Below are positions 13 through 61,736 of a DNA stretch of 61,736 nucleotides, piece by piece. Under the pieces are notes generated by a model, which did not search any database, had not been told where the DNA came from, and saw only the letters and a list, made by a program, of their open reading frames with translations. A program made the position numbers and the translations under genes. The stretch is from Jacunavirus JC01 (Duplodnaviria; Heunggongvirae; Uroviricota; Caudoviricetes; Casjensviridae). The stretch's first letter is position 1, and the number at the start of each line of letters is the position of its first letter. The stretch covers positions 1 to 61,736 of IMG/VR virus record IMGVR_UViG_2974716774_000001, one strand, 5' to 3'.

Positions 13-477
13 CGCGATTCGCGAAAAATTGCCGGTTCCTGTATAGCGCCGCCTTGAAAATCAGCAACTTACGTGGGGCCGCCGGTGGGCTTAGCGTAGC
101 TAACAGGATAATTTTTCAGAAATTCGTCGATAGCCCCGCATTGAAAGTTTTTATTTATCAGCGACTTACAGGCCGCGGTCATCTCGACGGCACAGTGTGT
201 TTCCGGAAACACAGATTTGCCGTATTAAGTGTGTCGGTCAAAAAGCCTTACTGTACAAGGATTTACTATACTCTTAACACACTAACACACAGACACACTT
301 AATGTGTATATAAGGTAAGTAGGTATTGTGTGATGATCGTAATGGCGTTTCACGTTACGTATTATATGTATGTATTAGCGAGTTTTGAGAGTAAGTGTGT
401 CATGGTGAAAGTGCCGAAAAAGTCATGCAGATCATAGGTTTACCCGGCACACCCATTTTTAGCGGAGGGTGTGTCGC

Positions 478-548: not shown

Positions 549-3182
549 TTACGCCCACGTATCGGCGACCTCCTTCGCGGCGCAAGACGCGATTTGTTCT
601 TCCAGGTGGAGTTTCATGGCGTCGTAGTCGATGGTGTCTTTGTCCTTCATCCACTTTTCAGGGTGGCGCATCCATACTGATCCACGAACCCCGTTGACGC
701 GCAGCTGAATACGCTTAACCGGCCCTTTCGAGTACCCCAGCGCTGACAGTCGTGATGCCACTCTGCTGTCACTAGGACGTATGTCACGGGGCACGCTGCG
801 CAGTAACAGTCCTGTGTGTATTAGCTCGTCCGTGACGCCCGCCACATCGTCAGACGCAATGGCGTCTTCCACGAAGTTCGTGAAGTCGTCCTGGGCGTTA
901 TCGATCATGTCGCTGGTGGCTTCAGTGAGCGGAGCAATACCGGAAGAGTGGTCGAAGTCCTCGCTGTATTCCCAGTCACGGAACCACAGCCGCAGCTCGC
1001 CAGCGCACGCCTTGAATGCCTTCTCGAAGTCTTTGAAGAAGCCGGGCTTGTCCTTCAGGAAAGCCATCGCGTCTTCCTTACTGCGAAAGCGAGACCGGAC
1101 TATCAGGAAACGACGGTCGCCATTGCTAATCGGCAGCGCGGCGATGTCGTTGGTGTACATCATCCAGCTGGCCGTGTTCACTTCGTCCTGACCTTCGCGG
1201 TTCTTCCTCTCGATGAAAAGCTGCTCGTTAGTGATAGGCTCCTTCAGGGAGTTAATGACGTCATAGCGGTGGCCCGCAACGCTGATTTCCTCGATGACCT
1301 TCAGCATCGACCCGGCCTGCCATCCCGTGAATGGCCGGTGGATAACCTGGTTGTTGACGGTGCCGACGTTTTCGCGGCCCAGCAGGTACGACATGAATTT
1401 CTTGATAATCGTCTTGCCGGAACCCTGGCCGCCGAGAATGACCAGCGAGTACGTCATGCGTTTGTTCGGGTTATTGATAACCCATGCCAGCCAGTCCATC
1501 GCGTGCCGGTACTCTTCCGGGTCGACGAACTGCGTGCGGAAAAAGTCCTGCACAATCTCAACGGCTTTAAGGCCTTTCTTAGAGATTTTCTCCGGCACTC
1601 CCGGCATCGTTTTCGGGTCAAACGTGTTCAGCCAGAGTTTTCCCTGCCACCGGAAAAAGTCTTCGCTTGGCACGCCGACCTCAGGCTTCCATGACGAACC
1701 TGGCATCCGGCCGTGCATGTCCGGGTAGTACATCATGCCGTGGATAATCGGCACCGGCCGCAAAGCGGTGGCGAATTGCTCAGGACTGCAGCCCATAAAT
1801 GCGGTATGCTGCGCCAGCGAGTTATTGAACGCGTGCGGCACCAGCGCAACTTTCGTCTCGCGGTTGATGAAGAGGTTATCTTTCTCGGCGTACACCCACG
1901 GCTCTATCCAGGCTGGCGCATCAAACTGCTTGTGGTCGACAGACAGTGCGTTGCGTTTGGTGGAAGCAGGGATTTTCTTGCCGGTAATACGTTTGTAGTT
2001 ATCACAGGCCAGCTCTACTGCGTGATCGCGAATGGTTCCCCAGACCGGTGTTTCGCGAAGTCGCTCAGCTGCGCGATCCCATTCGTACAGGTCTTCTGCC
2101 TGTTCGAACATCGGGATAACCCGCAGTAAGATGTCCTTTTCCATACGGGCATCCTCCACTTTCTTCACCAGACTTCTGACGGTGAAGGTGGCACCGCCGG
2201 TGCGGCGGAAATTCCCGTTATCCCATTTGTCGTTAAACGCGGCCTCGTCGTAGTTCGACGCGCGCGCTGACCACTCCTGCGCCAGCTCGCGAAACTCATC
2301 CTGCTCGCGCTCAGCGTCTTTGATGGCTGCGATGACCGGGAACCAGGCAGAATAGTCTTCCGCTGGTGGCAGGTCTTCCAGCAGGGCAGCAAACTCGGCG
2401 TACGTGCCGTCCCATTTATCTTTCGCGTCGTCTGCGTCTACCCAGTCGTCCTCGTCCACTTCGCCCAGGGCATCGGAGCGGTCTTCCGGCGCGCCGCCGA
2501 CGATTTTCCCGCGCTGCGGTGGCTCGTACAGCTTGTCGCCAGGCTGGATTTTTTCCCATCCCTGCTCCATCGCATAGCGGTCAAACTCATCCACGATGCG
2601 GCGCGCGTCGGCAAGGCTCAGCACTTCGAGATCCATGTCAGCGTGCATCGTCAGCGGCGTGTCTTTGCTGACCCACTGATACGGCTTCTGGGTGCCCGGG
2701 TGGATACCGAAGGCGACGAACTGCTGGCCAGCACCGAGGATTTCCACGGCGTTCTTCTCGCCGAAGTCATCGACCCAGCTGTGCGACTTCACTTTCGTGA
2801 ACGGTTCGTCAGCGCAGTAGACGAGCAGCGTTTTTGGCGCCCGGCCCACGCGAGCGGGTGCAAACCCCACGTTGGCTTCGATGAAATCGCGCATATGCTT
2901 CGCCGCGTCGACGTCCATGCAGTCAATATCGACCGCTGGCGTGAACCAGGTGCGGATGCCGATGCCGTAGCGGAAATATTTCTTCTGCCATTCCTCCAGC
3001 GCGTCTTCGTTAACTGCAACCGACTCCCAGTTTTTCATGAGCGGCGCTTTACCGGCCGCCTTGAAAGGCACCAGCTCACCGGTCTTTTTGTCGCGGATCT
3101 TCGCGTCAAGAGGGGAGATTGGAATAAAGGCATAGCCGTTTTCTAGCAACGTCCTGCCGTATTGCTGGAGATATCTTTTCAT
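549..3182 (-). CDS. DNA primase/helicase (P-loop NTPase, D5-like)
   Basis: 877-aa ORF; Walker A-like LVILGGQGSGKT; long N-terminal region preceding the NTPase domain; sits beside the polymerase module. Confidence 0.65.
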   Translation of the reverse strand: MKRYLQQYGRTLLENGYAFIPISPLDAKIRDKKTGELVPFKAAGKAPLMKNWESVAVNEDALEEWQKKYFRYGIGIRTWFTPAVDIDCMDVDAAKHMRDFIEANVGFAPARVGRAPKTLLVYCADEPFTKVKSHSWVDDFGEKNAVEILGAGQQFVAFGIHPGTQKPYQWVSKDTPLTMHADMDLEVLSLADARRIVDEFDRYAMEQGWEKIQPGDKLYEPPQRGKIVGGAPEDRSDALGEVDEDDWVDADDAKDKWDGTYAEFAALLEDLPPAEDYSAWFPVIAAIKDAEREQDEFRELAQEWSARASNYDEAAFNDKWDNGNFRRTGGATFTVRSLVKKVEDARMEKDILLRVIPMFEQAEDLYEWDRAAERLRETPVWGTIRDHAVELACDNYKRITGKKIPASTKRNALSVDHKQFDAPAWIEPWVYAEKDNLFINRETKVALVPHAFNNSLAQHTAFMGCSPEQFATALRPVPIIHGMMYYPDMHGRMPGSSWKPEVGVPSEDFFRWQGKLWLNTFDPKTMPGVPEKISKKGLKAVEIVQDFFRTQFVDPEEYRHAMDWLAWVINNPNKRMTYSLVILGGQGSGKTIIKKFMSYLLGRENVGTVNNQVIHRPFTGWQAGSMLKVIEEISVAGHRYDVINSLKEPITNEQLFIERKNREGQDEVNTASWMMYTNDIAALPISNGDRRFLIVRSRFRSKEDAMAFLKDKPGFFKDFEKAFKACAGELRLWFRDWEYSEDFDHSSGIAPLTEATSDMIDNAQDDFTNFVEDAIASDDVAGVTDELIHTGLLLRSVPRDIRPSDSRVASRLSALGYSKGPVKRIQLRVNGVRGSVWMRHPEKWMKDKDTIDYDAMKLHLEEQIASCAAKEVADTWA

Positions 3183-3460
3183 TCAAGCACCTCGCCTTCA
3201 GCATCAAACCGCATGGCTTCCGGCGCCATTAACCAGGTCGCCTTCACTCCCGAACCGCTGGCCGCCGAGGCGAGCGCGGTGGCAACACGGTATGACATGC
3301 GTCCGGCTTCCTGTGCTTTCAGTGCTGTGTGGTAATTCACATCGGCGAGGCGGGATAGTTGCTGCATTGACCCGTCCCGGTGGGCGTAGGCAGACATAAT
3401 CATGCACAGGTACTTCAGTCGCATGTATTTGTCTTTGCGTGCCCAGTCTGGAAAGCGCAT
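3179..3460 (-). CDS. Hypothetical protein, first gene of leftward operon (possible HTH)
   Basis: 93-aa ORF overlapping primase start by 4 nt; segment SMQQLSRLADVNYHTALKAQ looks helix-turn-helix-like. Confidence 0.45.
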   Translation of the reverse strand: MRFPDWARKDKYMRLKYLCMIMSAYAHRDGSMQQLSRLADVNYHTALKAQEAGRMSYRVATALASAASGSGVKATWLMAPEAMRFDAEGEVLE

Positions 3461-3511
3461 AGTGTGTTCCTCAAAAATAAAACCCCACGCACAGGCGCGC
3501 GAGATTTGCAG

Positions 3512-3541
3512 ATACTAGGCCGCCTGACCGGCTCCCGTCAA
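3512..3541 (-). promoter_or_regulatory. Putative sigma70-type promoter for the leftward primase operon
   Basis: On the minus strand TTGACG, 18-nt spacer, TAGTAT, about 45 nt upstream of the 3460 start. Confidence 0.3.
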
Positions 3542-4089: not shown

Positions 4090-4110
4090 GCCCGGGCGAC
4101 CGGGCTTTTT
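4090..4110 (+). terminator. Intrinsic terminator/attenuator
   Basis: Hairpin GCCCGG-GCGA-CCGGGC followed by TTTTT, immediately before the RBS of the next gene. Confidence 0.5.
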
Positions 4111-6214: not shown

Positions 6215-8269
6215 ATGCCTGACCACATTCGCCTTGACTATGAATCCCGTAGCCGAACCGACCTGCCCACTGCAGGCCTGGCCCGGTATGTGCGAGACCC
6301 GACCACGCAGGTGCTGATGGCTTCCTGGGAAGAGAACGATTCAGGGAAAATCGACTTCTGGGATATCCGCCAGGGCCGACGGCCGCCAAAACCGCTGATT
6401 GATGCTATCCGCGATCCGAAAGTTATCAAATGGGCCTTCAACGCGCAGTTTGAGCGCAACATGACCGAGCATGTCCTCGGCATAAAAACCCCGTATTCTT
6501 CCTGGCGCTGTACGATGGTGCTGGCGTACATGCTGGGCTTCTCTGGCGACCTCGCAATGATTGGCAGACTGGTAGGCCTGCCCGAAGAGATGCTGAAGAG
6601 CAAAGAGGGTTCGAAGCTCATCTCGCGTTTCTCAAAGCCGCGTAAACCAACAAAGGCCGACCCACGCGAATGGCACGACTGGACGACGCACCCGGAAGAG
6701 TTTGACAGTTTTGGCGGCTATAACCGACAGGACGTGCGCGCGGAGTCCGCTATCGGCCGTCGGCTCGGCAATACGGAGAAATACCCCATTCTGGAAAGCG
6801 AGTGGGATCTCTATGCGCTAGACCAGTACATCAACGACACCGGAGTCACCGTCAACGCCGAATTTGCGCGCATGGCACTTGAGGTGGCCGAGCGCAGGAA
6901 GCCGATCCTTTTTGAAGAGATGCGCGACATTACCGGCCTCAGTAACCCCAACTCCGTGTCTCAGCTGCTGCCCTGGCTGGGAGAACGCGGCTACCACTTC
7001 AGCGACATGCAGTCGGAAACAGTAAAGCAGGCGCTGCGCGAAGCCGATGAGCTGGGTCTTCCGGAAGAAGTTCGTCGCGTGCTGAAGCTGCGCCAGAACG
7101 TCAGCAAGTCGTCGCTCGGCAAATACAACACGATGCTGAGCACCATGACCGAGGAAGATAACAAATACCGCTACTCGCTGCAGATGTGGGGCGCCAGCCG
7201 CACCGGCCGCTGGGCAGGACGCGGCGTTCAGCTGCACAATTTGCCCCGCACGCCAAAAATGCTGGAAGACGAGTACATGCAGGACGTCGCCATTGAGATG
7301 GTGAAAAAAGGCGACATGGAAGGACTGGAGCTGCTGGTCGGCGAGCCGATGGACGCGCTGGTCGGTCTGATCCGCTCTGCCTTCATCCCCACCCCAGGCT
7401 ACCGTTTTGTGGTATCAGACCTGGCATCCATCGAATCGGTCGTTATCGGCTGGCTGACTGACTGCAAATGGTTCATGGACACGCTGCACGCCGGGCGAGA
7501 CCTGTACCGGGCGTTCGCCGCAGAGTGGCTGAAGATACCGTACGAAGAGACAAAACCGCACCGCAGCAAAGCCAAACCGGCAACCCTCGGCGCGGGCTAT
7601 GGTCTCGGCGGCGGCAAATTCGACCCGATTAAGAAAAAGAAAAACGGCCTGTGGGCATACGGCGAAGGTATGGGCGTATTCATGACCCAGCAGGAAGCGC
7701 ACGCGTCCGTGAATGCGTTCCGCGAGCTTTGCCCTGAAATCGTTTCGTACTGGCGCCAGCTGGAAGATGCAGCCAAGACGTGCATCAAAGAGCGCCGGTC
7801 GGTCAAGTGCGGCAAGGTTACTTTCGAGTTTCGTAAGCCGTTCATGGCCATCGTTCTTCCGTCCGGGCGCCGCCTGTATTACTTCAAGCCTTTCCTGAAA
7901 AAGAAAACCGTCGAGTACACGGACAAACACACCGGCGAGATCAAGACGTTCGAAAGCCAGGAGATTCTCTACTACGGGAAAGACGGCCCGAAATGGGGTC
8001 TCCAGCACACCTACGGCGGCAAGCTGGTGGAAAACATCGTACAGGCTATCGCGCGTGACGTGCTGGCCGGTGGGCTGAAACGCGCGCACGAAGACGGCTT
8101 CGGCATACCGTTCCACGTCCACGATGAAATCATCACGGAAGTGCCGGTCGACGACGAAGAGCGAAATCTCGATCGTCTGCGCCAGCACATGACGGCGCCG
8201 ATACCGTGGGCACCAGGTCTACCCCTCGGCGCAGCTGGGTGGGAAGGCTTCCACTACAGGAAAGACTGA
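6215..8269 (+). CDS. DNA polymerase, family A (Pol I-like)
   Basis: 684-aa ORF; motif A-like VVSDLASIESVV, motif B-like RSKAKPATLGAGYGLGG, motif C-like HVHDEIITEV; RBS GGAG upstream. Confidence 0.85.
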   Translation: MPDHIRLDYESRSRTDLPTAGLARYVRDPTTQVLMASWEENDSGKIDFWDIRQGRRPPKPLIDAIRDPKVIKWAFNAQFERNMTEHVLGIKTPYSSWRCTMVLAYMLGFSGDLAMIGRLVGLPEEMLKSKEGSKLISRFSKPRKPTKADPREWHDWTTHPEEFDSFGGYNRQDVRAESAIGRRLGNTEKYPILESEWDLYALDQYINDTGVTVNAEFARMALEVAERRKPILFEEMRDITGLSNPNSVSQLLPWLGERGYHFSDMQSETVKQALREADELGLPEEVRRVLKLRQNVSKSSLGKYNTMLSTMTEEDNKYRYSLQMWGASRTGRWAGRGVQLHNLPRTPKMLEDEYMQDVAIEMVKKGDMEGLELLVGEPMDALVGLIRSAFIPTPGYRFVVSDLASIESVVIGWLTDCKWFMDTLHAGRDLYRAFAAEWLKIPYEETKPHRSKAKPATLGAGYGLGGGKFDPIKKKKNGLWAYGEGMGVFMTQQEAHASVNAFRELCPEIVSYWRQLEDAAKTCIKERRSVKCGKVTFEFRKPFMAIVLPSGRRLYYFKPFLKKKTVEYTDKHTGEIKTFESQEILYYGKDGPKWGLQHTYGGKLVENIVQAIARDVLAGGLKRAHEDGFGIPFHVHDEIITEVPVDDEERNLDRLRQHMTAPIPWAPGLPLGAAGWEGFHYRKD

Positions 8270-44385: not shown

Positions 44386-44414
44386 ATTATGATTATACAC
44401 TTCATGTGTGTCAA
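44386..44414 (-). promoter_or_regulatory. Sigma70-type promoter with embedded dyad (family member)
   Basis: Minus strand TTGACA-CACATGAAGTGTATAAT-CATAAT; 17-nt spacer contains ACAC-N5-GTGT. Confidence 0.45.
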
Positions 44415-53376: not shown

Positions 53377-54034
53377 CGTTGTCCTCCACCAGCTCGTAGA
53401 CGAGGAAGCCCGGAACTTCGGTGATGCGCATGGGCCGCGATTCGACCAGCGTTTTCAGCACCTCAGCCGTGTTGATGCGCAGCTCGGTCATGCCGTTGCC
53501 GATCATGATTTGACGAACCGTGGCTTCAAAGAAGGCGTTGAACTCTTCTCCGTGGCGCTCTTCCATCTTGTCCATCAGCGCACGAAGCAGTTCATTTTCG
53601 TCGAGCAGATCCCACTGCTTCTGGAGGCGCTCAACCTCGGCCTGCGCCTTCTCGCGGGTGTCGATGACGTCGCGACCGGCCAGCGATTCAAACTGAGCGG
53701 CGCTGGTGTCGGTTTCAGCCGCCTGCACAGGGGAATACTTAACCTCTTTTAAATCCTCCGCCATCTTGTCATAAGGCGCAGCAAATGCAGCGTACGAACC
53801 CGGCTGGCGGCCCTGCGGCGCCACGGTGGAGTTATAGGCATAGCCTGCCACCTTCGTGCCGTTAAGCAGCACGTTCAGGCGCGCCGCCACCGCGTCATAG
53901 AGCGACGGGTTGAGGTCTTTAATCCGCACTGCCACACCGCCGTTAAGCTCGGCGATAATGCTTTTGATCGGCGATACACCGTCAAATTTGTTAGCCACAG
54001 CCACGGCCAGGTTCATCAGTTCTTTCTGTTCCAT
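53369..54034 (-). CDS. Hypothetical protein
   Basis: About 221 aa from the ATG at 54034 preceded by RBS AAGGA. Confidence 0.45.
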   Translation of the reverse strand: MEQKELMNLAVAVANKFDGVSPIKSIIAELNGGVAVRIKDLNPSLYDAVAARLNVLLNGTKVAGYAYNSTVAPQGRQPGSYAAFAAPYDKMAEDLKEVKYSPVQAAETDTSAAQFESLAGRDVIDTREKAQAEVERLQKQWDLLDENELLRALMDKMEERHGEEFNAFFEATVRQIMIGNGMTELRINTAEVLKTLVESRPMRITEVPGFLVYELVEDNDA

Positions 54035-54044
54035 GTTGGTGTCC

Positions 54045-54581
54045 TTAAATCTTGTCACGGAGCCACTGGATCCCAGCGGACATGTATTTGACCTGATGAA
54101 TCGCATCATCGAGGGCGTTGTGGAATGTGCCTTCTCGTTCGAACTTCAACGGGTTTATGCCTGCCAGATCTACCGCCGTACGAACGTCGCGGATATTCCA
54201 GAATTTCCACGGTGTCGGAAGATGCAGCTGAGCGAACCACGCTTCCAGAATAGTGATGTCGAACACGGATCCGTTGCCCCAAACGAGGTCATTACCGTCC
54301 AGCCACTGAATGAATTTAAGGGCACTCTCGCGCGGGTTGTCGCTGCCATTAAACGCGTCCTGCTTAGCGGCGTCTGACTGTTTCTGCCACCATTCCAGGG
54401 TGTCGGGGTCAACGTGCCCGAAGGCGCGGGCATTTTCGTAGCCCATGCAGCAGTAGAACGTCTCACCGATCTCGCCCGTGTAGCGGTCGAAAGCCACGGC
54501 GCCGATGGACAGCACCGAACAGCCCGGGCTACGGCCGAGCGTCTCAATGTCGATCATTACGTCACGATGTTTCTTTTTCAC
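54045..54581 (-). CDS. DEDDh-type 3'-5' exonuclease (DnaQ-like)
   Basis: 178-aa ORF; Exo I IDIETLG, Exo III HNALDDA. Confidence 0.6.
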   Translation of the reverse strand: MKKKHRDVMIDIETLGRSPGCSVLSIGAVAFDRYTGEIGETFYCCMGYENARAFGHVDPDTLEWWQKQSDAAKQDAFNGSDNPRESALKFIQWLDGNDLVWGNGSVFDITILEAWFAQLHLPTPWKFWNIRDVRTAVDLAGINPLKFEREGTFHNALDDAIHQVKYMSAGIQWLRDKI

Positions 54582-55450
54582 CAGTCTTCTCCGAAAGGAT
54601 TACACTCTTCAGTGCAGTTACCCGGCGCATCTTCATACAACGGCCGGTAGTCATTATCGACTTCACTAAACGTCGCTATCAGGTCAGCGGCGCTACGGAA
54701 GCCCCGGTACATCTTGCGTGGCCCTTCGACCACATTTGGCCCGACGTCACCACAGCTTTTCTCCATTTCCGCCGCGGCGTGGAAGTATTCCGGATTGTCC
54801 TGGAAGGCCCGGAGCAGCTTCGCGTCAGACTTTTTAAAGCAGAAAACGCAGTTTCCGCAGTGCTCAGGTATCCCCAGGTCAAACGGCATAAACTCCCACC
54901 AGTCGAGCACATCTTCTTTCGTGGTTGGCCACCAGTGCGCCAGCGGGTACACCTTGTTTTGCCGGGTCTGGCGGTCAGGCTTTTTAGGCTTGATGCGCCG
55001 TGGTTCGTCAATGCGCATACCGACGGCTGTCAGGTATTCCCCTTTGGCCCAGCCCAGCGCCTCCCACAGATACCCGTGGATCGGTATCTCTTTCAGCTCC
55101 CGCGTGCAGTGCAGGTAGTTGGTGTTCGGTAGCCCATACTTCCGGCACATCTCGATGTAGGGCTCACCTTTGCGGCTGGCGGTCTCGTACGTCACTACCT
55201 TCCAGCCGGTGCGCACGCCTTTCTGCTCGTGCGTTATCGCCTCCACCCACACGGTATTGAAGCCCAGCTGAACGTCGCAGTTATGCACGAAGTCCAGCGT
55301 GGCCGGGTGCTCAAAGCCAGTGTTGGCGAAAAGCACTTTAATGTCGTACTCGTCTGACTTCTCCTGCAGCAGCCGGTACGTCATGTGCGCCGAGGTTCGG
55401 CCACCGGACATGGCGGCCACCAGCCGTGGTTTCATTTGTGATGCCCGCAC
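54578..55450 (-). CDS. PP-loop ATP pyrophosphatase superfamily protein (PAPS-reductase-like)
   Basis: 290-aa ORF; PP-loop-like AAMSGGRTSA near the N-terminus; cysteine pairs HCGNCVFC and NCTEEC. Confidence 0.55.
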   Translation of the reverse strand: MRASQMKPRLVAAMSGGRTSAHMTYRLLQEKSDEYDIKVLFANTGFEHPATLDFVHNCDVQLGFNTVWVEAITHEQKGVRTGWKVVTYETASRKGEPYIEMCRKYGLPNTNYLHCTRELKEIPIHGYLWEALGWAKGEYLTAVGMRIDEPRRIKPKKPDRQTRQNKVYPLAHWWPTTKEDVLDWWEFMPFDLGIPEHCGNCVFCFKKSDAKLLRAFQDNPEYFHAAAEMEKSCGDVGPNVVEGPRKMYRGFRSAADLIATFSEVDNDYRPLYEDAPGNCTEECNPFGEDW

Positions 55451-56208
55451 TTTGAACAGACCAGATAATCTTCCTGGTAGATGTCGGGACAGGAATGAGG
55501 AACCCAGTTGTGCTCACAGGGCTTCGTCTTTTCGCGGTCGATCCCGAGCGTCAGCGGGGCGATTTCATTCGGCATTATCTGGAAGTGGTTAGTCAGCGCG
55601 CCTGCGATGGCCATGCCTTCTTCCCGATCGATGCGTGTTTCGATGCGGGTCAGCAAGCCCTGCTGGAAGATGAATGAGGTTTCGCCCTGCACGTCGTCCA
55701 GCTGAATGACGCGAGGCATCTGATTGAGGTCGGGCAGCTTAAAGCTGGTGGTTTTTCCGCTGCCCTGCTGGCCGACACCGATGACGTCAGGACGGGATTT
55801 CCCCTGTTCCGGTGCGGCGGGCTTATATTGTCGATTCTCCATGCCGAGAAGCTTGAGTGCCTCATCGAAGAACATGATTTCCACCGAAAATCCCTCTGAC
55901 TCCAGTTTGTCGCGGGTTTTAGTGAGTTTTTCCTGACGTGCAACGTTCGTCAGAACCAGAAAGCGCCAGCCCAAAAGGGAGGTTTCGACCTGTTTGCCTG
56001 CAGCTCTGCACCGCGCAGCGAAAGAAGTCATGTTAATCAGATCCCGGAAATTTCCATCCCAGCTGTCGAGGACGCTTTTGCATTTAAGCTTCTCCTTAAG
56101 CGCATAGGCGTAGGTGGTTTTTCCGCAGCCCTGCGGGCCGACAACGATGACGAACGTCGGTCGGTCGCTGGTGACGGGAGGGATGGTGCTGCCATTATGT
56201 CGAATCAT
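55432..56208 (-). CDS. P-loop NTPase with two Walker-A motifs and C-terminal Cys/His zinc-ribbon-like tail
   Basis: 258-aa ORF; VGPQGCGKTT and VGQQGSGKTT; VIQLDD Walker-B-like; C-terminal CEHNWVPHSCP...CSKCGHH. Confidence 0.5.
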   Translation of the reverse strand: MIRHNGSTIPPVTSDRPTFVIVVGPQGCGKTTYAYALKEKLKCKSVLDSWDGNFRDLINMTSFAARCRAAGKQVETSLLGWRFLVLTNVARQEKLTKTRDKLESEGFSVEIMFFDEALKLLGMENRQYKPAAPEQGKSRPDVIGVGQQGSGKTTSFKLPDLNQMPRVIQLDDVQGETSFIFQQGLLTRIETRIDREEGMAIAGALTNHFQIMPNEIAPLTLGIDREKTKPCEHNWVPHSCPDIYQEDYLVCSKCGHHK

Positions 56209-56273
56209 TTCTCTGCTCCGGTTGGGGTGGTACGCCCGGCGAAGAGGTGCCGGGCCTATGGGTGCGCTGGCGG

Positions 56274-56684
56274 TCAGGCCGTGCGCGTTACGATGACCTG
56301 CACGTATACCACGCCGCTCGGCGTGATGGTGGCGTTGGTCTCCATTGTGAAGTTACGGTTGTCGACGCTCTTCGCGTGACGGATGGACTGATTCAGCGAC
56401 TGGCGCAGCTGGCGCTTCCATTCGTTCATGTTCTGACGAACCTCGGCCAGCGTCATGTCGTCCGGCATTTTCAGGCTGCGCGAGTAGTTTCCGCCAGGCT
56501 TGAGAGACAGCAGGTTGGAGATGGCGCTGCCCGGGCGGCCGTTGCCCGGCAGGTCTACGTCCGGCTCGGCAGACAGCAGGGCTGCGGTGATAGCCTGCGC
56601 AGTAAGGCTGGTGGCTGTGTTGCCGCCGGTCGGCGCGTCCACATCATCAGGCAGATCCCATACGTCGTCGTGCTCGTTTGACAT
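56274..56684 (-). CDS. Hypothetical protein, first gene of the long leftward accessory operon
   Basis: About 137 aa from the ATG at 56684 preceded by RBS GGAG; the longer upstream ORF extension runs through the direct repeats and is rejected. Confidence 0.5.
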   Translation of the reverse strand: MSNEHDDVWDLPDDVDAPTGGNTATSLTAQAITAALLSAEPDVDLPGNGRPGSAISNLLSLKPGGNYSRSLKMPDDMTLAEVRQNMNEWKRQLRQSLNQSIRHAKSVDNRNFTMETNATITPSGVVYVQVIVTRTA

Positions 56685-56717
56685 TTTATTACTCCGTGTG
56701 TCGTTTGAAGATGTGAG

Positions 56718-56747
56718 AAAGATATAACTACACTTCGGATGTGTCAA
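56718..56747 (-). promoter_or_regulatory. Sigma70-type promoter with embedded dyad (family member) driving the leftward operon
   Basis: Minus strand TTGACA-CATCCGAAGTGTAG...TATATC about 30 nt upstream of the 56684 start. Confidence 0.45.
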
Positions 56748-56771
56748 ACTTTTTCTGGGCGCTCGGGGGCA

Positions 56772-57024
56772 GGCTGACTTTCTGAAGTAAGGCGGCGCGG
56801 CATGGCGTTCGTCACGGAAAACCGACAGCCGGGTAACTTTTTGAAGTAAGGAAACGCCGTGGCGCCGCGCGACAACCGGCTGACTTTTTGAAGTAAGGAA
56901 GTCATTCAAAAATTTTGGAAGCGAGCGACAGCCGGGTAACTTTTTGAAGTAAGCCGGGGATTTTCCTGAACAGCCGCAAAACCTCGTCGGCTCGATCGAC
57001 AGCCGGGTAACTTTTTGAAGTAAG
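56772..57024. repeat. Array of five direct repeats (core CTTTTTGAAGTAAG; long form CGACAGCCGGGTAACTTTTTGAAGTAAG)
   Basis: Copies at about 56772-56792 (degenerate), 56823-56850, 56873-56898 (degenerate), 56926-56953 and 56997-57024. Confidence 0.85.
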
Positions 57025-57293
57025 CCCCGCGGGCGGCGCGCCTCGCGCGTATATAAAGAGGGCCGTGGCGCCGGGCGGCCCAGGGTGGCGCCGAAAACGT
57101 GTGAAAATACGCGATTTTTGCTTTTTCTATGTGAATCAAGCACTTATCGAATTTTCAGCGCCCTGGGCGGCGTGGTTTTCTTGTGAATCAATGGCTTACG
57201 AGGTGGGCGGCGCGCCCTGGTGGGCCGGGCCGTTCTGGATTTCCATATAAACCAGGCATTTAGCGAATCTGTGAAAATTTTTGTAGAAAGTCT

Positions 57294-57322
57294 TTGACAC
57301 ACTCCGGGTGTATCACTACTAT
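57294..57322 (+). promoter_or_regulatory. Sigma70-type promoter with embedded dyad (family member) driving rightward genes
   Basis: TTGACA-CACTCCGGGTGTATCAC-TACTAT. Confidence 0.45.
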
Positions 57323-57372
57323 TCATCTCATCGGGGCAGCGGCCCCCATCTAAAAACTGATGAGGCGAAAAT

Positions 57373-57633
57373 ATGGAAAAGGTCTATCACACGCTCAAAG
57401 GCGAAACCCTTCAACACTGGCTCACCATTGCCATTATCCGCGATGTTTCCGGCGATGCACGTGTTGAAACGCGCAGCACGATCCATGTTAATAAAGTCTC
57501 CCCCGTCTCCTTCACCTGGGGCGCAGATTTTACCGACGCTGACATCCTGAATGATGGCGACCTTCTGCGCGTAGTTTACCAGCGCTACGGTCGTGACATT
57601 TTCACCGGTAAATATACCCGCGATTTTAATTAA
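57373..57633 (+). CDS. Hypothetical protein
   Basis: 86-aa ORF with RBS GAGG upstream. Confidence 0.4.
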   Translation: MEKVYHTLKGETLQHWLTIAIIRDVSGDARVETRSTIHVNKVSPVSFTWGADFTDADILNDGDLLRVVYQRYGRDIFTGKYTRDFN

Positions 57634-57643
57634 GGAGATCATC

Positions 57644-58165
57644 ATGCAAACTATTCAAACTAAATATAGCAATGGTCGAGTACGTGCCGCGTGCTGGAAT
57701 GGCTCCTGTCGTATTGATGCAGACCCGGCGCTGTCCAGTGAGGCTAATCATCGTGCCGCCGCTGAAAAATTGGTCGCTAAATTAAACGCTAATCGTAACG
57801 TTTTATGGGGGATCGTATGCAGCGCGCCATCGGTGGGCGACGGCTGGACTTTCATTATTGACTACGTGCCGGATATTCGCCCGCTTAATATGTCCATCAC
57901 GGTTAAATTCATGCCCGCGACTAATACCGGCCCGGCTTATATGCGTGTTTATTCATGGTTAAAACCAAAAGGAATTAAGGTGCATTATTCGCCGAAAGTC
58001 GCGGACGGTTGCGATATTCAAGGGCACGCGTTGTATGCGGCAAATATAATGCTGGATGAAATAAACCGCCAGTGTGAGGAAACGCGCGCGGGTATCAAAT
58101 ACGGCATTAGCGAATACGTTATGACCTACGACGGCGATCGCCTGTTCACCGTCAAAGCTGAATAA
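57644..58165 (+). CDS. Hypothetical protein
   Basis: About 173 aa from the ATG at 57644 preceded by RBS AAGGAG. Confidence 0.45.
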   Translation: MQTIQTKYSNGRVRAACWNGSCRIDADPALSSEANHRAAAEKLVAKLNANRNVLWGIVCSAPSVGDGWTFIIDYVPDIRPLNMSITVKFMPATNTGPAYMRVYSWLKPKGIKVHYSPKVADGCDIQGHALYAANIMLDEINRQCEETRAGIKYGISEYVMTYDGDRLFTVKAE

Positions 58166-58277: not shown

Positions 58278-58901
58278 ATGCGTGCCATTAGTCTGTCTGA
58301 ATCCGCTTCTTACCGTGTCCTGTACACTTCCCTTGCGCATGTGTCGCCTGCGGATCTTGCCAACCTTAAATCTATGTGTGAGGCCGGATATTATTTCGTT
58401 CACAACGTGGAAAATGATTTTTCCGGTATTATTTGCCGCTATGGTGCCGTAACGCCTGAAAGCGATGTCGGGGAAGTGATGATCGGCGATTATGGGTTTT
58501 CTGAATCTTTCGGCGAAATGATCGCGCAGTTCAAAGACGCCGGTTTTGATGCGGTGCATTTTGACGTTGACGGGGATTTAGTGGAGGGCGTCACCTGGTA
58601 CACGGAAAATAATACTCGTGTACAGCCCATTGCTTACGGCTGTGAAATATTAACATGGTGGGATCTGGCCGTTGAGCATCAGCTCACCGCAACGGATGAA
58701 TACGGGGATGACGGCGACGCGGATTTAAAATATTTTTTGGCGGATGGCGTGCTGTACTGCCTCGATAATTTCATGCGAGTAACTGATGGCGAAATGCAGG
58801 AGATGGGCTTTCACGCGAGCGCCGGTGAATCAAACGGCAGCGCCATCTGCATTACGCTCTCGGATAATAGTGATTTTGTCGACGTGGCGCGCGTATCATG
58901 A
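58278..58901 (+). CDS. Hypothetical strongly acidic protein
   Basis: About 207 aa from the ATG at 58278 with RBS AAGGGG; very high Asp/Glu content. Confidence 0.45.
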   Translation: MRAISLSESASYRVLYTSLAHVSPADLANLKSMCEAGYYFVHNVENDFSGIICRYGAVTPESDVGEVMIGDYGFSESFGEMIAQFKDAGFDAVHFDVDGDLVEGVTWYTENNTRVQPIAYGCEILTWWDLAVEHQLTATDEYGDDGDADLKYFLADGVLYCLDNFMRVTDGEMQEMGFHASAGESNGSAICITLSDNSDFVDVARVS

Positions 58902-59104
58902 CCGGCCCGGCAAAACGTGCGGCGGTTAAATTTACCGTATGCGCCGCGCTTGCTGTATTCGGTGGAGTGGCGATCCCGTTTGCCGGGTCGCCGTATAAGG
59001 TTTTTCTTTATGTCCTGGCTATCGGCGTATGCGTTAAACTCGCATGGCCCAGCCAGGAGGAGGGCGAGGCGCTGATTAAGGCGGTAGACGATGAGAAGCG
59101 TTAA
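58898..59104 (+). CDS. Small membrane protein
   Basis: 68-aa ORF; two hydrophobic segments. Confidence 0.4.
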   Translation: MTGPAKRAAVKFTVCAALAVFGGVAIPFAGSPYKVFLYVLAIGVCVKLAWPSQEEGEALIKAVDDEKR

Positions 59105-61343: not shown

Positions 61344-61445
61344 CACACACTTCGGATGTGTCATGGGTGGCTGTGGTGCTGACACTTCGGATGTATCAAA
61401 GGCGCGGTGTGATTGTGACACGTTGATACACATGGAATGTGTCAT
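61344..61445. promoter_or_regulatory. Cluster of TGACAC/GTGTCA dyad elements (operator-like or packaging-recognition sites)
   Basis: CACACACTTCGGATGTGTCA (61344-61363), TGACACTTCGGATGTATCA (about 61380-61398), GTGACACGTTGATACACA and AATGTGTCATG (about 61412-61445). Confidence 0.4.
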
Positions 61446-61724: not shown

Positions 61725-61736
61725 GGTGCGCAGAGC
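61725..61736. repeat. Terminal 12-bp direct repeat GGTGCGCAGAGC, right copy (putative cohesive end)
   Basis: Exact copy of bases 1-12 at the last 12 positions of the window. Confidence 0.6.

Follow-up and report, generated by a model that had tools for sequence, protein, structure and literature searches.

The DNA analysed here (hereafter the window) is the whole of an IMG/VR record of Jacunavirus JC01, 61,736 bp in length. It starts and ends with GGTGCGCAGAGC (1-12 and 61725-61736), the same cohesive end of 12 bases as was determined for Chi (PMC4342425), and is therefore taken to be a complete cos genome of about 61.7 kb, that of a chi-like phage in the family Casjensviridae. The nearest record is that of Salmonella phage SLP-22, of the genus Jacunavirus; similarity to Chivirus and other genera is found only at the level of distant DNA and of proteins. 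A primase-helicase gene (549-3182, - strand; Pfam/PHROGs) is followed on the + strand, from 3.7 to 42.3 kb, by replication genes (exonuclease, gp2.5-like SSB, PolA, SNF2 helicase) and then by terminase and structural genes. Beyond these lie an early-left operon on the - strand (42.4-56.7 kb), coding for methyltransferases, an RdgC-type protein and DUF7609, and an early-right operon of small unknown genes on the + strand (57.4-61.1 kb).

Two features outside the central locus deserve mention. At the left end of the window the element AGCsCCGCnTTGAAA occurs twice (45-61 and 132-148), each copy overlapping or shortly preceding an IHF-like WATCAR-N4-TTR site (59-71 and 156-168), an arrangement that resembles a lambda-type cosB; Chi and Enc34 carry a perfect IHF core equally far from the end (positions 59-72). 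Just downstream of DUF7609 are genes for a P-loop ATPase (258 aa, 55432-56208, -) and a PAPS-reductase-like protein (290 aa, 54578-55450, -), both common to SLP-22 and an IMG/VR relative; for the latter protein, tblastn also gives a 38%-identical match in Chi, at a different position, near 43.1 kb. Together with three or four methyltransferase genes, this pair suggests a DNA-modification module.

The divergent gap, its promoters and the repeat array

The two early operons diverge from a gap of 688 bp (56685-57372), in agreement with the 690 bp given by the first-pass annotation and, on crude gene calls, the largest internal non-coding gap of the window. The leftward operon opens with a 136-aa DUF7609 gene (56274..56684, -; Pfam), whose start ATG at 56684 is preceded by GGAG, and the rightward operon with an 86-aa DUF7300 gene (57373..57633, +; Pfam). 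The DUF7300 gene is common only to Chi-type phages and hence no universal partner of the array described below; the first rightward-operon genes are unrelated between the phages compared. A longer minus-strand ORF (56274-57143, 289 codons) had been called spurious, and rightly so: the DUF7609 Pfam match is confined to residues 52-136 of the 136-aa protein begun at ATG 56684, and the upstream part of the ORF translates the repeats in shifting frames. As had been noticed, its translation is itself repetitive, with LLQKVTRLS found twice, plus YFKKLPGC. The repeat array is not coding.

A promoter scan predicts one strong sigma70-like early promoter on each side. P_left (56719..56747, -) reads TTGACA-17-TATCTT as scanned, with TATATC as an alternative -10; its -35 lies at 56747-56742, the palindrome ACACATCCGAAGTGT occupies its -35 and spacer, and by position it drives the DUF7609/recombination operon. 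P_right (57294..57322, +) reads TTGACA-17-TACTAT with a palindromic spacer and its -35 at 57294-57299, and downstream of it lies the variable accessory operon. The array lies upstream of both predicted promoters, so that neither would transcribe it. In the array-bearing relatives examined, both early promoters have the form TTGACA-17-TAnnnT and a palindrome that begins in the -35 and extends into the spacer, except that the right-hand promoter of Soft was not located.

The promoter palindrome, which starts in the -35 (TTGACAC-ATCCGAAG-TGT), covers 56730-56747 (-) and 57294-57311 (+) and recurs at 61347-61364 (-), 61382-61399 (-) and 44397-44414 (-). None of these extra copies has a -10, and they are situated within the left operon and in the non-coding DNA close to cos at the right end. 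The palindrome looks like a separate operator system, for which a Cro-like 93-aa protein encoded upstream of the primase (3179-3460) is perhaps a plausible binder; the annotators of Chi named their counterpart of this protein a transcriptional regulator.

Five repeats, all in the same direction on the + strand, occupy the gap, and their 13-bp cores span 56779-57024. As 25-bp units they comprise a degenerate copy 1 (56767..56791, GGGCAGGCTGAC-TTTCTGAAGTAAG), copy 2 (56826..56850, CAGCCGGGTAAC-TTTTTGAAGTAAG), copy 3 (56873..56897, CAACCGGCTGAC-TTTTTGAAGTAAG), copy 4 (56929..56953) and copy 5 (57000..57024), all +. The first-pass annotation had described five direct repeats of one core, and their presence is confirmed by the sequence and by the shuffle test below; identity of the core holds for copies 2-5 (56838-56850, 56885-56897, 56941-56953 and 57012-57024, all TTTTTGAAGTAAG), while core 1 (56779-56791, TTTCTGAAGTAAG) differs from them by one mismatch. 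Start-to-start distances between cores are 59, 47, 56 and 71 bp, within the range of 47-71 bp reported earlier. Three copies had been said to be extended, and copies 2, 4 and 5 indeed have the 28-mer CGACAGCCGGGTAACTTTTTGAAGTAAG in common; the left part of copy 3 is CGACAACCGGCTGAC. The further claim that GC-rich DNA follows each repeat fails at copy 3, where AT-rich sequence comes next. An AT palindrome, CAAAAATTTT, lies about 20 bp upstream of copy 4, and most related phages show a similar element before one copy.

The repeats are real and not a product of chance. When a 14-mer was scored at ≤2 mismatches, the window contained 6 matches, a number reached in 0 of 100 dinucleotide-preserving shuffles of the window (shuffle mean 0.17). 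The sole match outside the array is at 4105, where it overlaps a ribosome-binding site.

To the right of the array are two consensus IHF cores in the same orientation, 52 bp apart and both with a T-rich 5' flank: site 1 (AATCAAGCACTTA, 57134..57146, +), which belongs to a 17-nt direct repeat TGTGAATCAAGCACTTA, and site 2 (AATCAATGGCTTA, 57186..57198, +). They adjoin the array and are the only perfect matches to WATCAANNNNTTR in the 61.7-kb window; having both the core and an A/T-rich flank, they are predicted IHF binding sites. IHF-like ATCAA..TTA elements, exact or one-off, are present in the equivalent gaps of SLP-22, Enc34, Chi and Kokobel1. The IHF core in the Enc34 gap (53678-53690, TATCAACGCGTTA) and the IHF site of the Mu operator (about 944-956 of the extracted Mu locus) have the same sequence, the four unspecified bases included, which is probably a coincidence. 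A second short motif, AATTTTTRTAGARAA, is found after some repeats, and one copy of this type abuts the -35 of P_right: TTTTTGTAGAAAG (57278..57290, +), a relative of the 13-mer with two mismatches. This element may simply be an UP element, since other phages carry generic A/T-rich DNA there.

Conservation among chi-like phages

Comparison with related phage genomes had been proposed as a check on the repeats, and they turn out to be strongly conserved. The 13-mer TTTTTSAAGTAAG is unchanged, apart from the choice of G or C at S, in 77 distinct copies from 25 loci. It forms the right part of an asymmetric unit of 25 bp with the consensus CAnCCkGnnAGs-TTTTT-S-AAGTAAG, of which the left 12 bases (CAnCCkGnnAGs) are semi-conserved, with genus-specific variants; the sequence downstream of the 13-mer is not conserved. 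Genomes with this motif have 2-5 copies each (2-6 over all relatives), and the array keeps a constant position, flanked by the DUF7609 operon on one side and the early operon of opposite direction on the other, and a constant orientation, pointing away from DUF7609. Spacers differ in sequence and length even among close relatives, whereas the sites do not, and in this family proteins are 30-66% identical between phages while the 13-mer stays constant.

Arrays were found in the genera Chivirus, Yonseivirus, Lavrentievavirus, Jacunavirus, Redjacvirus, Enchivirus and Kokobelvirus, and also in IMG/VR contigs. Phage Chi has five copies in the equivalent gap, spaced 49, 43, 71 and 51 bp apart, and the array is also present in FSL SP-030, KpYy141, Soft, SAKp15 (Yonseivirus), pPM_01 (Lavrentievavirus), SLP-22 (Jacunavirus), Redjac, Enc34 and Kokobel1. 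A 31-nt probe matches 159 phage records, exact paired cores occur in 12 IMG/VR contigs, and in the five complete genomes checked the motif is confined to the array. Linkage to the RdgC operon is retained even in a distant IMG/VR lineage. In this 3-kb neighbourhood, DNA similarity between the window and Chi is detectable from the second repeat as far as the end of the second rightward gene and no further.

Two more distant phages delimit the distribution. Serratia phage JS26 (Dunedinvirus) carries five or six diverged units, GGTCTsGCTGGC-TTTyTCAAGTACC, in the equivalent place and orientation. Proteus phage Saba (Cenphatecvirus) lacks the motif throughout its 60,056 bp, and both its early promoters stand back to back in a 247-bp gap devoid of an array. 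The array module is thus dispensable in one member of the family, and as Saba keeps the promoter pair without it, the array appears to be an add-on, more in keeping with a modulatory role than with an essential one. Phages of the FSL SP-030 subgroup have an HNH endonuclease gene (2364-2888 of the extracted locus) between DUF7609 and the array and are left with two intact repeats and one decayed copy, so that two copies suffice in a viable phage.

A scan of bacterial and archaeal genomes for such arrays returned only one mis-binned chi-like contig; its nine other matches were rejected as unrelated tandem repeats in AT-rich or low-complexity DNA. The 13-mer occurs with regular periods in tandem repeats of Methanobrevibacter, Okeania, Bacteroidales, Clostridiaceae and a giant-virus bin, most likely by chance among very many repeat families. 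In Chi, three E. coli-type Chi recombination sites (GCTGGTGG; genome positions 53650, 53770 and 53914, one strand; about 3026-3290 of the extracted locus) fall within 265 bp of that phage's own repeat region, out of 16 genome-wide on the same strand; no such clustering was seen in the gap of the window. The motif and the array go unmentioned in the Chi genome announcement and in full-text literature searches.

Several GenBank records call ORFs across the array, which the present analysis corrects. The small hypothetical proteins concerned are JS26 gp14 (6676-6918 of the extracted locus), Soft gp16 (2508-2612), pPM01_0015 (2572-2700), SLP22_0068-0070 (1724-2821) and Chi gp63 (3352-3525), annotated over the array or IHF region; all are probably spurious ORFs made by the repeats.

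Possible functions of the array

The near-identity of the signal across phage genera makes it very probable that the units are docking sites for a protein. Our preferred reading, to which we give a probability of roughly 40%, is an operator- or enhancer-like platform that, with IHF, tunes the divergent early promoters. A sequence-specific factor would occupy the 3-6 sites independently, IHF would bend the intervening DNA, and the complex would set the strength or timing of the two promoters; a nucleoprotein platform would thereby form in a non-transcribed gap between two strong sigma70 promoters. The placement of the array upstream of both early promoters, with the only perfect IHF cores of the window beside it, is consistent with such a role. 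Against it, the array keeps no set distance from the promoters, lying about 20 to 90 bp from the -35 of P_left and 110 to 310 bp from P_right depending on the phage, which is not how a classical activator site behaves; the repeats show no helical phasing; each early promoter already has a palindromic, operator-like element of its own; and 13 invariant positions are unusually strict for an operator.

The binder may be a conserved host protein, given that the 13-mer is invariant in phages whose proteins are only 30-66% identical, but the JS26 variant and an apparent exchange of the module between lineages leave room for other explanations. When about 50 proteins of the window were scanned with Pfam and PHROGs, no sequence-specific DNA-binding domain was revealed in the early operons; the DNA-binding proteins found were TerS and the Cro-like 93-aa protein upstream of the primase. 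The latter was discarded as array binder: it is present in Saba too, its versions in different phages share 30-36% identity, and the promoter palindromes suit it better. DUF7609 is modelled as a small domain of beta-alpha-beta-beta topology, for which weak matches of the SpoVS/Alba/IF3-C kind were obtained. When the proteins of the window and of pPM_01 were profiled phylogenetically against Chi, Enc34, JS26 and Saba, a single gene was found to track the array relative to Saba; it codes for a 68-aa protein with two predicted transmembrane segments (58898-59104, +). It occurs in the window, Chi, pPM_01, Enc34, Soft and Kokobel1, is missing from Saba and is undetectable in JS26. We rejected it as the binder, as it is an implausible DNA-binding protein and JS26 has a variant array with no detectable homologue. 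The homologue in Soft is annotated as a 'putative DNA binding protein', a label that its sequence does not support. As for host factors, among the sites familiar to us (DnaA box, Tus-Ter, Fis, CRP, sigma54, sigma32, sigmaE, sigma28, OmpR, CpxR, RcsB, MqsA), which were compared as by-eye leads only, we know of none that fits all invariant positions or the G/C alternation at S.

The repeats could instead be iteron-like initiator sites, with replication starting in the neighbouring AT-richer DNA at about 57100-57160, where IHF would bend the DNA and negative supercoiling from the divergent promoters would help opening. The first-pass annotation had offered iterons or an array of regulator sites; the conserved binding-site array stands, but an iteron origin is unsupported by the tests run, and we regard it as unlikely. 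Several features do speak for it: direct repeats in one orientation, 3-6 in number where iterons call for at least three; IHF consensus sites beside the array, in a layout resembling the pSC101 and R6K gamma origins, which have adjacent IHF sites; a motif unique to this locus; and a position in the largest internal non-coding gap, between strong promoters, much as the origins of lactococcal phages c2 and sk1 lie in non-coding repeat regions between divergent promoters. Bulk GC skew also peaks at 56.5 kb in a two-replichore fit, but was dismissed as origin evidence, the third-codon-position signal per gene being a coding-strand effect with no replichore signal. Iterons are regularly spaced and helically phased, typically at about 22 bp, whereas spacing in these arrays is irregular (31-83 bp, differing between relatives, with larger gaps of 122 bp in Redjac and 168 bp in Soft and a median of 57 bp over all 43 spacings) and unphased at a period of 10-11 bp (Rayleigh test, p = 0.1-0.8). 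The least stable DNA of the genome is found at 96-450, 3583 and 57627, not in the array gap, where 57100-57159 is a 60-bp stretch of 33% GC and the best 300-bp window ranks only in the top 5% for instability. Pfam/PHROGs scans of the window proteins found no Rep, O or DnaA-like protein, and no conserved DnaA boxes are visible in the compared intergenic sequences. The only candidate initiator is the Prim-Pol/SF3-type primase-helicase (Prim-Pol, PriCT_2 and DUF5906 with a 180-aa tail), which was eliminated as an iteron binder on the grounds that its C-terminus (residues 701-877) does not covary with the motif: this region is 55% identical between pPM_01, which has the motif, and Saba, which lacks it, 26% identical between the window and Chi despite the same left half of the motif, and 71% identical between Chi and Enc34, yet their left halves differ. 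Saba, moreover, retains primase, exonuclease, SSB, PolA and helicase in the absence of the motif. A better origin candidate is the AT-rich stretch that separates cos from the 3' end of the primase gene and carries phage-specific direct and inverted repeats: TTAAGTGTGTC in the window (225-235 +, 292-302 -, 391-401 +), GGTTACAAGTT in Chi and TATTACAAATT in Enc34 (regions 224-505 and 235-515 of the respective extracts). The sequence of these repeats differs where the primases differ, following primase relatedness, and 96-450 of the window is a candidate for a primase-linked origin or for part of the packaging site. It is these primase-side repeats, with the irregular spacing, the skew, the stability profile, the primase tail and Saba, that lowered our estimate of an origin at the array.

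A role at the DNA level other than replication, as a sponge that titrates a host factor or as a loading or recombination site for the RdgC-type operon, seems improbable to us. It would accommodate sites that appear independent and unphased, a copy number varying from 2 to 6, an invariant 13-mer suggestive of a conserved partner, dispensability in Saba and the persistent linkage to the RdgC operon; however, no candidate factor was found and the array is absent from bacterial chromosomes. We hold it very unlikely that the array is a checkpoint or anchor for DNA entry comparable to the T5 iss, at which a factor bound to the oriented repeats would pause or anchor the incoming genome. The right cos end would enter first, bringing in the first 5 kb with the accessory rightward operon and P_right, and entry would pause before P_left. 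A cos genome with a lambda-like cosB/IHF region at its left end points to left-to-right packaging and right-end-first entry; a hypervariable accessory operon of 4.4 kb occupies the right end, with the array at its inner border; its untranslated repeats are more conserved than the neighbouring ORFs, as in T5 iss; fixed orientation and unphased spacing would suit a polar barrier; and the only gene tracking the array relative to Saba codes for a small membrane protein. Yet two-step entry has not been reported for chi-like phages, the direction of entry is itself deduced, T5-type DnaA boxes are absent from the array, Saba does without an array, and JS26 combines a variant array with no detectable homologue of the membrane protein. 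A bolder form, in which the array is an orientation signal read by a highly conserved host factor that halts entry after the first 5 kb in flagellum-dependent cos phages, is slightly less probable again; if true, it would mean T5-like two-step entry or a polar barrier in siphoviruses unrelated to T5. Least credible of all is an element acting as RNA or as tandem promoters, each unit being a promoter or a non-coding RNA module such as a sponge for a protein or sRNA. Orientation is fixed, and U5 followed by AAGUAAG could in principle bind Hfq-like proteins, which is speculation, but no predicted promoter reads into the array, the spacers have no conserved hairpins, no -10 is conserved at a set spacing from the unit, no -35/-10 pair 16-18 bp apart was picked up within the array by the promoter scan, and the G/C alternation at the central S breaks any reading as a -35. 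Rfam covariance models gave no match at E ≤ 1 over 56000-58000. Intrinsic terminators were likewise rejected, a 'terminator-like' match at copy 5 not being shared by the other copies.

Phage Chi and its relatives, classic flagellotropic phages, are now used in biocontrol and therapy work, and to our knowledge nothing is known of the control of the early program or of replication in chi-like phages. No other non-coding element found here in the family is as strictly conserved as the array, and its 13 constant bases, kept across phages with 30-60% identical proteins, offer a handle for finding the binding factor. That factor, possibly a host protein exploited by many genera, would help to map the origin, early regulation or DNA entry.

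Comparison with known systems

Iteron origins (pSC101, R6K gamma and P1; lambda ori) share with the array direct repeats in one orientation, IHF sites next to these and, plausibly, activation by neighbouring transcription. The array differs from them in its long and irregular spacing and in having neither an outstandingly unstable stretch of DNA, nor a linked or covarying initiator gene, nor conserved DnaA boxes; its motif is also identical across genera rather than replicon-specific. In the iss of T5, an untranslated repeat region is more conserved than the adjacent ORFs (10.1101/866236). The chi-like array is similarly conserved beyond its neighbouring accessory ORFs and lies near a genome end with early accessory genes; T5, however, has inverted repeats, palindromes and paired DnaA boxes, and the array has one asymmetric direct-repeat unit with IHF sites. 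The datA and DARS loci of E. coli are protein-binding boxes with an IHF site that act away from the origin and regulate an initiator. Like them, the array combines a handful of boxes with an IHF site, but the boxes of datA and DARS are DnaA boxes, and the chi-like motif matches no DnaA box.

The operator/enhancer of phage Mu (O1-O2-O3, between Pc and Pe) is alike in its divergent promoters, in an IHF site within the cluster and in mostly same-strand sites led by a T-tract (CTTTTCAGTAA and CTTTTTAGTAAG in Mu, CTTTTTSAAGTAAG in chi-like phages). Mu sites are 11 bp long, about 15 bp apart and overlap the promoters, whereas the chi-like units are 25 bp long, spaced 31-83 bp apart and upstream of the promoters; unlike Mu, chi-like phages are virulent and without transposition. 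With Mu Rep, Ner and the N-terminus of MuA as queries, phmmer reached a best E-value of 0.57 among the six-frame ORFs from six genomes, and no Pfam match to the winged helix of Mu Rep/MuA domain I-alpha was obtained either. We therefore read the resemblance of the chi-like array to the Mu operator/enhancer as one of architecture rather than of family membership.
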